64,000 bases of DNA from sequence record PQ390715.1; one strand, written 5' to 3'. The stretch's first letter is position 1. The number at the start of each line of letters is the position of its first letter. The position numbers were made by a program, and so were the translations under genes. Source of the DNA: Escherichia phage SHEFM2K. Below are positions 16,956 through 19,192 of the stretch, one piece after another. The notes below the pieces were generated by a model. It made no database searches. It saw nothing but the letters and a program-made list of their open reading frames with translations, and had not been told where the DNA came from.

Positions 16956-18509
16956 TCATTTACCGTATTTGCTCATGATGTCCTTTTCCCAATGAGTTAC
17001 GTTACCGTTATCGTAATCTTTAAAGGAATTATCAAGAGTAGTTAATGCATATTCGTATGCTTCAGGTGATTCAATGTCAACATCATCAGCACCATTTACT
17101 AAATCAGTCCATGCTTTTTGTAGTTTACGAGCATTTTTACCAACATTACTTTTAATCCAACTAATGTTTTTGTTGATACTCTTATTATCAGCACCAGCTT
17201 TTTTACCAATATCGGATATCCACATCATTAGCTTTTGGAGTTCATGAATGGAGTTGTCGTTCATTTCACGATCTTTAGCCAATTCTGCTTCCATGCCATC
17301 AGTATCAGTACCATCTTTAGAACCTACATCAATTCCATGTTTAGCTAATAGTTTACCAAGTTCAAAGAATGCTGCCTCAGCAGGGAAGTCATAACCTTTG
17401 TCTTTGTAGTTGTTCCATGCACTATCAAACTCATCTACAAATCGGTTGGCATAATCTGGATTGTCCACGAGAGCTTTGTACACTGCCATTGCATGTTCAA
17501 ATCCTTCTTTGTCAGAACCAAACTCTCCCATTTCTGGACGATGAATGTAACCATCCATATCAACAGTATCAGGTAAATCATCATGAGATGTTTCAGCATC
17601 TTTCTGGTCAACTGCACCTTCTTCATCATCACGCATCAGATAACCATCTCGTGTAACCTTCTCACCATGATCAGCTTCATACTTTTTCATAGTATTGAAT
17701 GCAGCATCCATTGCAGTTACAAAACGACTCTTTTCACCTTGTACATAAGATTTAAGTGCATCGTTAACTGCATCAGATACTAATTTAATCTTATCGTCTT
17801 TGCCTTCCAGACGGTTTTCTAACTTAGCTAGTACATTCTTAACTTGTTGAGCATTAGCACGGTCTTCTTTACCAATACTATCAAATGTTTTAAGTACGCT
17901 TTCAAGACTTACTTCCTCTTGTGCAGGCACATCACCTTGTTGCGTACCTTCAAGTGCACGCATTATAGTACTGAATACTTCAGTTGGTTCAGTACTGGTA
18001 TTTCCACTCATTGCATCAAGTACAGCTTGTGCTTTGACTTTTAATTCTTCTTTAGGTACAGATTGCAATTCTTTCACAATACCTTGGATAAGTTGTGGTT
18101 TATTAGCAAAAATCTTACCTAACTTATCAGACAGTTCTTTGACAGGGTTAACCGCCTTTGGTGCTTCTTGTTTTGGTTCTTCTTTCGCAGGAGCAGACTT
18201 TTCTTTTTCTTCACGTTCCATATCAGCTAGACGTTGTTTTTGTGTAGCATTAAGAAGTCCCAATGAATTAACATAACGTAGCTTTTCTAGCTCAGTCATG
18301 TTCTCAGTACTCTTAACTTCACCTGCTTCTGCGTTTGCTTTACCAGCTAGACCAGTTCCTTGATTACGTGACCCACGTGAACCTTGACCTGCTTGATAAC
18401 TATTTGGACGGCGGTTGCGTTCACTCCATTTATCAGAGTGACCAGCCATGTTACCACCATTTTTATCAGTAAAATTACTTGGCATTTGATTTCTCTCCAT
18501 AGATTTCAT
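16956..18509 (-). CDS. large acidic Lys/Glu-rich protein; possible internal virion protein (synteny with T4 ipII/ipIII between tRNAs and denV)
   Basis: 517 aa; shares N-terminal block (Y..SLGLL.. / ..LGK.F.. / ..VKELQSVPKEE..) with 18755..19138; TATAAATA 18 nt upstream of ATG. Confidence 0.65.
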   Translation of the reverse strand: MKSMERNQMPSNFTDKNGGNMAGHSDKWSERNRRPNSYQAGQGSRGSRNQGTGLAGKANAEAGEVKSTENMTELEKLRYVNSLGLLNATQKQRLADMEREEKEKSAPAKEEPKQEAPKAVNPVKELSDKLGKIFANKPQLIQGIVKELQSVPKEELKVKAQAVLDAMSGNTSTEPTEVFSTIMRALEGTQQGDVPAQEEVSLESVLKTFDSIGKEDRANAQQVKNVLAKLENRLEGKDDKIKLVSDAVNDALKSYVQGEKSRFVTAMDAAFNTMKKYEADHGEKVTRDGYLMRDDEEGAVDQKDAETSHDDLPDTVDMDGYIHRPEMGEFGSDKEGFEHAMAVYKALVDNPDYANRFVDEFDSAWNNYKDKGYDFPAEAAFFELGKLLAKHGIDVGSKDGTDTDGMEAELAKDREMNDNSIHELQKLMMWISDIGKKAGADNKSINKNISWIKSNVGKNARKLQKAWTDLVNGADDVDIESPEAYEYALTTLDNSFKDYDNGNVTHWEKDIMSKYGK

Positions 18510-18526
18510 TTTTTTCTCTATGTCTA

Positions 18527-18534
18527 TATTTATA
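18527..18534 (-). promoter_or_regulatory. T4-late-promoter-like TATAAATA box
   Basis: Exact TATAAATA on minus strand 18 nt upstream of ATG 18509. Confidence 0.45.
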
Positions 18535-18546
18535 GTATAAAGAAAA

Positions 18547-18564
18547 GGCTGACCGAAGTCAACC
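18547..18564 (-). terminator. PeSL-type hairpin, copy 6 (terminator; weak -10)
   Basis: GGTTGAC-TTCG-GTCAGCC + T-rich. Confidence 0.55.
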
Positions 18565-18572
18565 TTATTTTG

Positions 18573-18686
18573 TTACTTAGATTGTTCTTGTGCAGGTGGA
18601 TTTACTTTTTGATCCACTACATAGAATACACCACCAACCAGTACTGCGGCGATGAGTGCAGCAACTACAAATTTTAAACCTTGCAT
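18573..18686 (-). CDS. hypothetical 37-aa membrane peptide
   Basis: MQGLKFVVAALIAAVLVGGVFYVV..; RBS GAGGTA; sits between two PeSL copies. Confidence 0.35.
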   Translation of the reverse strand: MQGLKFVVAALIAAVLVGGVFYVVDQKVNPPAQEQSK

Positions 18687-18715
18687 ATATGATACCTCAG
18701 TTATATTGAGAAGTT

Positions 18716-18747
18716 ATGATACAACAAAGGGCTGACCTTAGTCAACC
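18716..18747 (-). promoter_or_regulatory. terminator-promoter cassette (PeSL-like), copy 7 (loop TAAG, -10 TATCAT)
   Basis: GGGTTGAC-TAAG-GTCAGCCC + T-rich + TATCAT. Confidence 0.6.
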
Positions 18748-18754
18748 CTTTTTA

Positions 18755-19138
18755 TTACTTCTTGAACTTATGTTTTTCACTTTCGATTGCATTCACGATT
18801 TCATCATGAATTTTACGAAGATTGTGAGTTTTCTTTAGAGATTCATGTAATGCACGGAATGCAGAGTGTACAGTTGCTTTAAAGTGCTCTTTAGGAGTTA
18901 CTTTAAGTTTCTCGATAATATCACGTACATAGATTGGGTGATCCTCAAACACACGATTAAGCTCATGACCTAGTGATTCTAGGCTAAATGCTTTTTCACG
19001 GGATGGACGATCATGTGCAAGACTTTGGTCTGGTTTTAGAAGACCTAGTGAATCTAGATACTTGTGCTTATGTGCATTGTCTAGACCAGAAATATCAACA
19101 TCATGTGATGGATCTTTCTTATTCCATTTATCAACCAT
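18755..19138 (-). CDS. acidic/basic protein, N-terminal paralog of 16956..18509; possible internal virion protein
   Basis: 127 aa; ..KYLDSLGLLKPDQ.. and ..IEKLKVTPKEHFKATVHSAF.. align with the 517-aa protein. Confidence 0.6.
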   Translation of the reverse strand: MVDKWNKKDPSHDVDISGLDNAHKHKYLDSLGLLKPDQSLAHDRPSREKAFSLESLGHELNRVFEDHPIYVRDIIEKLKVTPKEHFKATVHSAFRALHESLKKTHNLRKIHDEIVNAIESEKHKFKK

Positions 19139-19184
19139 TTTTATAACTCCTATAAGAGATAAATTTTACTATAATATTTATAGT

Positions 19185-19192
19185 TCCGTTGT
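19185..19192 (-). promoter_or_regulatory. T4-late-promoter-like TATAAATA box
   Basis: Exact TATAAATA on minus strand 46 nt upstream of ATG 19138. Confidence 0.45.

Follow-up and report, generated by a model that had tools for sequence, protein, structure and literature searches.

Two paralogous genes of a RaK2-type virion protein family behind T4-type late boxes in Escherichia phage SHEFM2K

Genes at the locus

A 64,000-nucleotide stretch of the genome of Escherichia phage SHEFM2K (PQ390715.1), referred to here as the window, carries between positions 16,956 and 19,192 two paralogous genes on the minus strand whose orthologues encode proteins of the phage particle. The first in the direction of transcription is the small paralogue (18755..19138), which encodes 127 amino acids (aa) and matches PHROG 16530 with E = 3.6e-56. 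Its orthologues include gp199 of phage 121Q and gp037c of phage phAPEC6, the latter being 100% identical to the protein of the window. The large paralogue (16956..18485) matches PHROG 20398 with E = 3e-218 and, by the annotations of its relatives, corresponds to 121Q gp201, phAPEC6 gp035c and RaK2 gp275. Both proteins fit profiles of virion structural proteins of RaK2-like phages (PHROG 16530 and 20398) over most of their length. Between the two paralogues lies a gene on the same strand (18573..18686) for a 37-aa peptide with a single transmembrane helix. It is equivalent to 121Q gp200 (PHROG 35037), is conserved and is flanked by terminator/promoter hairpins of its own; the peptide was not found in the phAPEC6 virion protein list.

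The list of open reading frames (ORFs) extends the large gene to an in-frame upstream ATG at 18509, giving a 517-aa product (16956..18509, minus strand). An internal ATG at 18485 (M9) is the likelier start because it is preceded by a GGAGAG Shine-Dalgarno sequence and because MP[SG] forms the N-terminus of every large-type orthologue, those of other genera included. The large protein is thus probably 509 aa long rather than 517 aa.

A megablast search with positions 16600-19400 matched 44 phage records, every one a jumbo myophage of the 121Q/PBECO4/slurp01/G17/phAPEC6 group (genus Asteriusvirus), with slurp01 as the closest relative at 98.9% identity. These matches assign the window to an Asteriusvirus jumbo phage that is neither T4 nor a close relative of T4; T4-like core genes are present in RaK2-like phages. 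Orthologues of the two proteins were recovered by tblastn in 55-68 phage records, and close relatives keep the same gene neighborhood together with the late promoter box described below. Other members of the family are K64-1 gp344, GAP32_032, CBB_38 and gp027 of Serratia phage BF. Orthologues inside Asteriusvirus are 85-100% identical, and those of other genera share 31-52% of residues in the N-terminal module. When 1.84 billion representative proteins were searched with a family profile, only 39 matches were returned, consisting of family members, single modules or coiled-coil artefacts. As far as sequence searches can tell, the family is restricted to RaK2-like jumbo myophages.

The gene directly 3' of the large paralogue (16633-16959, minus strand) encodes a small signal-peptide protein (MKKYIIFGIVLFSSTAYG...). 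In GAP32, CBB, BF and 7t3, too, the family gene is followed by one for a small protein with a signal peptide, a possible case of conserved synteny. Further small secreted proteins of a similar kind are encoded close by, for example at 14688-15101 and 15870-16289.

Paralogy and modular architecture

Three comparisons agree with the proposal of the first-pass annotation that the two proteins are paralogous. Pairwise BLASTP aligns 119 residues of the two at 24% identity (E = 7e-8), a profile made solely from proteins of the large type picks up the small ORF among 1390 six-frame ORFs (E = 5e-9), and the large protein matches the family of the small protein, PHROG 16530, at 5.9e-38 across profile positions 1-164 of 168. 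By these alignments they are true but distant paralogues. The part in common consists of an invariant K-x-x-Y-x-x-x-L-G-L motif, which in the two proteins of the window takes the form K-x-x-Y-x-x-S-L-G-L-L, followed by a predicted helical domain of about 70 residues (L..L..F...P.....I...L..VP); in the 517-aa ORF it extends over residues ~75-190, and it makes up nearly the whole of the small protein. The first ~60 residues of the large type are rich in Gly, Ser, Arg and Asn and highly conserved, and the small paralogue is without them. Across the family, proteins begin with either MP[SG]xF..KNGG or MVDKW. The description of the pair as Lys/Glu-rich is accurate to a moderate degree, Lys and Glu together making up 20-22% of residues, and needs the qualification that Asp is also high and that the large protein is net acidic with a charge of -22. 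Neither the window nor 100 kb of phAPEC6 yielded a further paralogue or a K..Y...LGL motif in another protein. Genes adjoining the family gene in other genera were considered as additional paralogues and rejected.

Variation within the large type is concentrated away from the shared module. While the N-terminal third is strongly conserved, the remainder gains and loses helical modules of ~70-100 residues even among close relatives, so that lengths run from 417 aa in phAPEC6 through 495 aa in 121Q and 509 aa in the window to 606 aa in phage JNE01; the family as a whole spans 127 to about 600 aa. In the window these modular indels fall in the C-terminal two thirds of the large paralogue (16956-17950). 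Compared with the RaK2-like virion structural family the large paralogue differs in nothing essential and is a longer variant owing to such indels. One helical module of ~100 aa (SDKEGFEH...GIDVGSKDG) is missing from phAPEC6-type proteins. Another (MSE[DE]EFR...AADDL) is inserted in the versions of JNE01, UB and Klebsiella phages, sometimes at a second position, and is also found as free-standing proteins of 81-88 aa.

An AlphaFold2 model of the large protein, computed from a 25-sequence alignment, has a mean predicted local distance difference test score (pLDDT) of 72 and a predicted template modelling score (pTM) of 0.29. Residues 1-60 are modelled as disordered, and four all-helical domains (approximately 113-180, 194-273, 319-382 and 395-506) are joined by disordered linkers. 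Searches of Pfam, NCBIfam, PADLOC and PDB sequences gave no match for the proteins, while Foldseek returned nothing below E = 0.9 from the PDB and only family members from BFVD. With empty domain searches and an all-helical model of no known fold, the suggestion that the large paralogue might be an internal protein fused to an effector domain was abandoned. The label "chromosome segregation protein / SbcC" carried by the phAPEC6 protein was likewise set aside as what looks like coiled-coil or low-complexity noise, unrelated coiled-coil proteins giving similar spurious matches.

Late promoter boxes

An exact T4-type late promoter box, TATAAATA, stands upstream of each paralogue on the minus strand. 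The box of the large gene is at 18527..18534, 41 nt before the ATG at 18485, as first reported. That of the small gene is at 19175..19182, 36 nt before the ATG at 19138 and ten bases from the position given for it in the first-pass annotation (19185..19192); a near-copy, TATAAATG, is found at 19193..19200 (minus strand). The motif is strongly avoided in this DNA. Over both strands of the 64 kb, exact TATAAATA occurs 3 times against 13.2 expected, a depletion of about four-fold, and the ATAAATA 7-mer 11 times against 45.7 expected. Of the three exact copies, one lies antisense within an ORF and the two on the coding strand precede exactly these two genes. Their placement is clearly far from chance. 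The box before the large gene is exact in 121Q, G17, phAPEC6 and Klebsiella phage K64-1 and differs by one base out of eight in RaK2 and Salmonella phage 7t3; that before the small gene is conserved in 121Q, G17 and phAPEC6. In a comparison of sequences upstream of orthologues, the box was not clearly present in GAP32, CBB and BF.

Relatives with known virion proteins indicate what such a box may do. The phAPEC6 genome was surveyed over 1-50 kb and 135-185 kb (100 of 352 kb). Counting either strand, the first 50 kb hold only two TATAAATA and three ATAAATA sites, which lie upstream of gp035c, gp037c and gp077; all three are among the ten virion proteins detected by mass spectrometry (MS) from 81 annotated genes in that stretch, a coincidence with a chance of about 1.4e-3. 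Between 135 and 185 kb the exact boxes number six. Every one lies between genes on the coding strand, with a start codon 17-48 nt further on, and nearly all of 17 ATAAATA sites are placed in the same manner. Genes behind an exact box include those for the major capsid protein (MCP), the scaffold, gp238 and endonuclease VII, and gp237c, in the same stretch, is annotated as "sigma factor for late transcription". Working on CBB and GAP32, the authors of the CBB paper had independently derived ATAAATA as a motif before structural genes and noted a gp55-like sigma factor (PMC5259590). The late sigma gene itself lies outside the 64-kb window, and the evidence for it comes from phAPEC6 and CBB. Because the motif is otherwise avoided, is sited before these two genes and precedes MCP and scaffold genes in a relative for which a late sigma factor is annotated, both boxes very probably work as T4-type late promoters. 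Depletion, placement and conservation together thus support the earlier claim that both genes are driven from a box of this type.

Several other observations concern the same motif. On the minus strand, ATAAATA at 42855-42861, 45733-45739 and 46811-46817 lies 17-72 nt upstream of genes for tRNA-Thr (42710-42783), tRNA-Ser(tga) (45603-45692) and tRNA-Gly (46722-46794), and late promoters may drive some of the tRNA genes of the phage. A lone plus-strand gene within the minus-strand block (36220-37374, 384 aa) has ATAAATA 31 nt upstream (36182-36188, plus strand). It is the orthologue of phAPEC6 gp077, a virion protein detected by MS with 10 peptides, and by this correspondence it adds one more late or virion gene to those within the "early" region. 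The adjoining ORF (37417-38229, minus strand) is the counterpart of the phAPEC6 virion protein gp078c and is without a box. In phAPEC6, the virion genes gp005, gp006, gp007 and gp010 (8050-13020), annotated for RCC1 repeats and "DNA condensation", have a common conserved upstream cassette made of a hairpin, GCCAGTACT...AGTACTGGC, followed by ATTAAATATAGTATAAT. This cassette contains no TATAAATA box, and the late box is therefore not used by all packaged proteins. Upstream of GAP32_032, CBB_38 and BF gp027 (Mimasvirus/Eneladusvirus) there is no exact late box either; a conserved inverted repeat, CCCCTAAAT ... ATTAGGGG, surrounds an AT-rich TATAATAAAT stretch, and the homologues of these genera look to be under a different regulatory arrangement.

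Hairpins and sigma-70-like promoters

The window contains eight near-identical minus-strand copies of a GC-rich hairpin, GGTTGACTTCGGTCAGCC, with TTGACT in its 5' arm, each followed by a T-run and by a -10-like TAnnnT hexamer 17-18 nt downstream. They are located at 8199-8216, 9920-9937, 10845-10862, 15843-15860, 16928-16945, 18547-18564, 18730-18747 and 21972-21989. Three of them directly follow the small paralogue, the 37-aa gene and the large paralogue, with predicted folding energies of -12 to -18 kcal/mol and z-scores of -4.3 or below. The hairpin after the small paralogue (18730..18747) folds at -17.6 kcal/mol and reads TTGACT-18 nt-TATCAT. The one after the 37-aa gene (18545..18566; -12.4 kcal/mol, z = -5.4) is a PeSL-like terminator, a PeSL being a promoter early stem-loop. 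That after the large paralogue (16928..16945; -14.3 kcal/mol, z = -4.3) is a candidate terminator/promoter. In the annotation of G17, ARNold terminators are found at the equivalent hairpin sites, and the K64-1 orthologue is preceded by the same hairpin.

Both paralogues had been credited with PeSL early promoters in addition to their late boxes. For the large gene this is borne out by a sigma-70-like sequence (18534..18562, minus strand; TTGACT-17 nt-TATACT) whose -35 element is within the stem of the GGTTGACTTCGGTCAGCC hairpin and whose -10 element abuts the late box. No hairpin lies upstream of the small gene in the window sequence, where there is only a consensus match with an extended -10 (19217..19246, minus strand; TTGGGA-18 nt-TATAAT with TG upstream). 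Since sigma-70 consensus matches in the region number 13 against 12.4 expected, which is the level of chance, such matches carry no weight alone, and it is the hairpin repeat family that does. The hairpins are identified by this sequence pattern as PeSL-like composite terminator/promoter elements, a kind of element that the papers on RaK2-like phages consulted here do not describe. As in the PeSLs known from T4-like phages (Arbiol 2010; Comeau 2014), stem-loop and sigma-70-like early promoter form one element that recurs between small genes of a plastic region. The hairpins of the window differ in that the -35 TTGACT is in the 5' arm of a GC-rich terminator hairpin and is followed by the T-run and, at 17-18 nt, the -10. 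Upstream of T4 ipII and ipIII, by comparison, the hairpin spans the spacer and the -10, unlike in the window, and the geometry differs from that of the RB49 PeSLs as well.

Virion proteomes of relatives

Evidence that proteins of this family are part of the particle comes from published proteomes of orthologues rather than of SHEFM2K particles. In phAPEC6 virions analyzed by electrospray ionization tandem MS, gp035c was identified by 8 unique peptides (28.8% coverage) and gp037c by 5 peptides (48% coverage) (PMC7247149). RaK2 gp275 yielded 20 unique peptides (34.3% coverage), behind the tail sheath alone (PMC3622015 Table S3). CBB_38 was detected with 9 peptides and 56.6% coverage (PMC5259590), including 38 spectra in one gel slice, and the supplement of the same study lists the homologues CBB_38, GAP32_032 and RaK2 ORF275 as MS-positive in all three phages. 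The first-pass annotation held that the proteins should be found in purified virions, and the family has been detected in those of phAPEC6, RaK2, CBB and GAP32. In RefSeq, 121Q gp199 and gp201 are labelled "virion structural protein", as they are in PHROG, where the family is further filed under "head and packaging", a category with no experimental basis. The presence of the orthologues in virions is already published and annotated, and late-expressed, packaged proteins are the known part of the present account.

The CBB data offer one further detail. All CBB_38 peptides fall within residues 50-172, and the four predicted tryptic peptides of residues 1-49 were unseen even in the slice with 38 spectra. 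The unseen part is the same part that the small Asteriusvirus paralogue is without, and CBB_38 peaks in the gel slice that contains ORFs of 21-24 kDa. This gap is compatible with removal of the N-terminus at maturation and equally with poor detectability of very hydrophilic peptides.

Location within the particle

We tentatively favor a reading in which the two genes encode non-enzymatic, helical, late-expressed virion proteins that sit most likely inside the head as inner-body or ejection-type proteins; as a whole it falls just short of probable. Each gene could be an independent cassette bounded by terminator hairpins, with late transcription from the T4-type TATAAATA promoter by a phage gp55-like sigma factor and possibly some earlier expression from its sigma-70-type promoter. 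The proteins would then be incorporated into the particle via the common module (DKW, K-x-x-Y-x-x-x-L-G-L and a four-helix domain), and the variable helical modules of the large paralogue would be carried along as cargo or filler. Since the small paralogue is packaged without the Gly/Ser/Arg-rich N-terminus, any targeting determinant should be in the shared module. Four pointers favor an internal location. Bubblegrams of 121Q and phAPEC6 reveal a phiKZ-like inner body of 91 x 18 nm; the family is in no solved PDB structure although it is abundant in virions; both genes form cassette-like units away from the clusters for head and tail morphogenesis; and a conserved, docking-like N-terminal module combined with a hypervariable, indel-prone C-terminus resembles packaged "cargo" proteins. 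The functional site proposed here, the head interior, would make these proteins analogous to the T4 internal proteins (IPs) without being related to them. The narrower proposal of the first-pass annotation, that they are injected internal proteins, has a comparable standing, possible and a little less than probable.

A number of observations weigh against an internal location or against kinship with T4 IPs. Alignment of the 25-sequence family profile with T4 IPI, IPII and IPIII by hhalign, the hidden Markov model comparison, gave probabilities of 0.2% or less for each. T4 IPs are targeted to the capsid by an N-terminal sequence of ~10 residues, MKT(Y/F)xEF...(I/L)xE, which is cut by the prohead protease (PMC7697877), and no sequence of the MKT(Y/F)xEF type is found at the N-termini of the family. 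A check for prohead-protease-type cleavage near the shared N-terminal block had been proposed. The NPVKE that is invariant in the large type is missing from the small paralogue and from the GAP32, CBB and BF members, so it was set aside as a site, and no family-wide conserved cleavage motif was found. The large paralogue is acidic (net charge -22), T4 IPs being basic (+2 to +9) and associated with DNA. The phAPEC6 virion list also holds SSB, a RecA-like protein and thymidylate synthase (PMC7247149), so that being listed there is no proof of a structural or internal role. Little can be drawn from the absence of the family from the PDB, since the phiKp24 structure models capsid, sheath and tube only. 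The proteomes of relatives are of whole virions and so do not fix placement within the particle, and the hair-like fibers and decoration densities of phAPEC6 need proteins too.

Membership in the T4 IP family is accordingly rejected, there being neither profile homology nor a capsid targeting sequence. Neither protein matches an internal-protein PHROG or Pfam family, T4 IPs begin with MKTYQEFIAE or MKTFKEFTS, and no L/I-x-E is conserved near the N-terminus or in the shared block of the family alignment. Functional analogy to T4 internal proteins is nevertheless a plausible hypothesis despite the lack of kinship. Like the T4 ip genes, these are genes for small or medium, non-essential-looking virion proteins outside the morphogenesis clusters; composite hairpin/promoter elements stand on either side of them, they could be expressed early as well as late, and a shared N-terminal determinant precedes divergent bodies. 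Strand and rough order with respect to the tRNAs and denV agree as well. Along one strand, T4 has tRNAs ... e - ipIII - ipII - denV, with ipI beyond the tRNAs, and the window has tRNAs (42710-46794) ... small paralogue - large paralogue ... denV (10368-10802). The T4-like position once proposed for the pair is a loose likeness of order only, other genes filling the 24 kb to the tRNAs and the 6 kb to denV. A further difference is that a late box directly precedes the genes here, whereas T4 ip genes carry only an early-type promoter and hairpin of their own and the nearest exact TATAAATA boxes are upstream of gene e. The denV gene of the window (10368-10802, minus strand) encodes an endonuclease V that is 65% identical to T4 DenV over 131 residues, unusually close for such distant phages, which suggests horizontal exchange.

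Of the alternatives to a head-internal location, the strongest, though itself rather doubtful, is that the proteins are exterior or tail parts such as capsid decoration, anchors of the hair fibers, neck or baseplate accessories or tail-lumen proteins. Detection in whole virions would suit such parts equally, the late promoter is of the same type as those of other structural genes, and the "head and packaging" category is, as noted, no guide. Moreover, phAPEC6 and CBB carry unusual capsid and tail hairs, along with decoration and anchoring densities to which no protein is assigned. However, RaK2 and GAP32 have the family, and the available portions of their descriptions do not note hairs. The genes are also far from the tail and head clusters, and rapid indel turnover with lengths from 127 to about 600 aa would be unusual for a protein in a symmetric lattice; the N-terminus is predicted to be disordered and the linkers flexible (pTM 0.29).

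A role in assembly is decidedly unlikely but has points in its favor. The proteins could be assembly-core or scaffold accessories comparable to T4 gp22, gp67 and gp68, which would help build the T=28-class prohead and persist wholly or partly with no role after ejection. Their charged, helical composition is that of scaffolding proteins, they are expressed from the same late box as the scaffold gene, and the restriction of CBB_38 peptides to residues 50-172 would agree with a cut at maturation by the T4 gp21-like protease encoded in these phages. However, most of the chain survives in virions (48-57% coverage, spread along its length; CBB_38 in the slice of 21-24 kDa), unlike true scaffolds, which leave the particle or are broken down, and phAPEC6 has a separate gp22-like scaffold, gp226c. 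Very improbable is that these are abundant non-structural proteins co-purified with or trapped in particles, with the TATAAATA boxes reflecting late expression and nothing more. The virion lists of phAPEC6 and RaK2 do contain SSB, a RecA-like protein, thymidylate synthase and PhoH. Against this, the family was detected consistently in four independently purified phages of three genera, with high coverage and with peptide counts among the highest in each list.

Within the head-internal reading, the inner body offers the closest point of comparison. The phiKZ-type inner-body proteins are head-internal, processed proteins of giant phages that form paralogous families, with processing at (S/A/G)-x-E as a feature of theirs. 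A paralogous, abundant virion family in a genus with a phiKZ-like inner body would fit this pattern. RaK2-like phages, on the other hand, are T4-related and not Chimalliviridae, and according to the authors of the phAPEC6 study no phAPEC6 protein is similar in sequence to the inner-body proteins of phiKZ. In a bolder form of the proposal, which we consider unlikely when taken as a whole, the family would be the main material of the radiation-sensitive inner body of 121Q and phAPEC6, the shared module would be a transferable capsid-targeting signal, the Gly/Ser/Arg-rich N-terminus would be removed at maturation and the proteins would be ejected with the DNA.

Implications

The present result mainly tidies annotation: the two genes are paralogous, the start of the large gene is probably mis-set in the raw ORF, and the label "chromosome segregation protein" is unsupported. 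It also presents the T4-type late box as a sharp and strongly counter-selected signal that can be used to spot late and virion genes scattered in the "early" regions of these genomes. If the inner-body reading is true, the family would be the third class of head-internal proteins to have evolved independently, with no relation to T4 IPs or to the phiKZ inner-body proteins. Were the proteins head-internal, they would for the first time make the inner body of the RaK2/121Q group accessible at the molecular level and would provide, possibly, a targeting module for packing foreign proteins into very large capsids.

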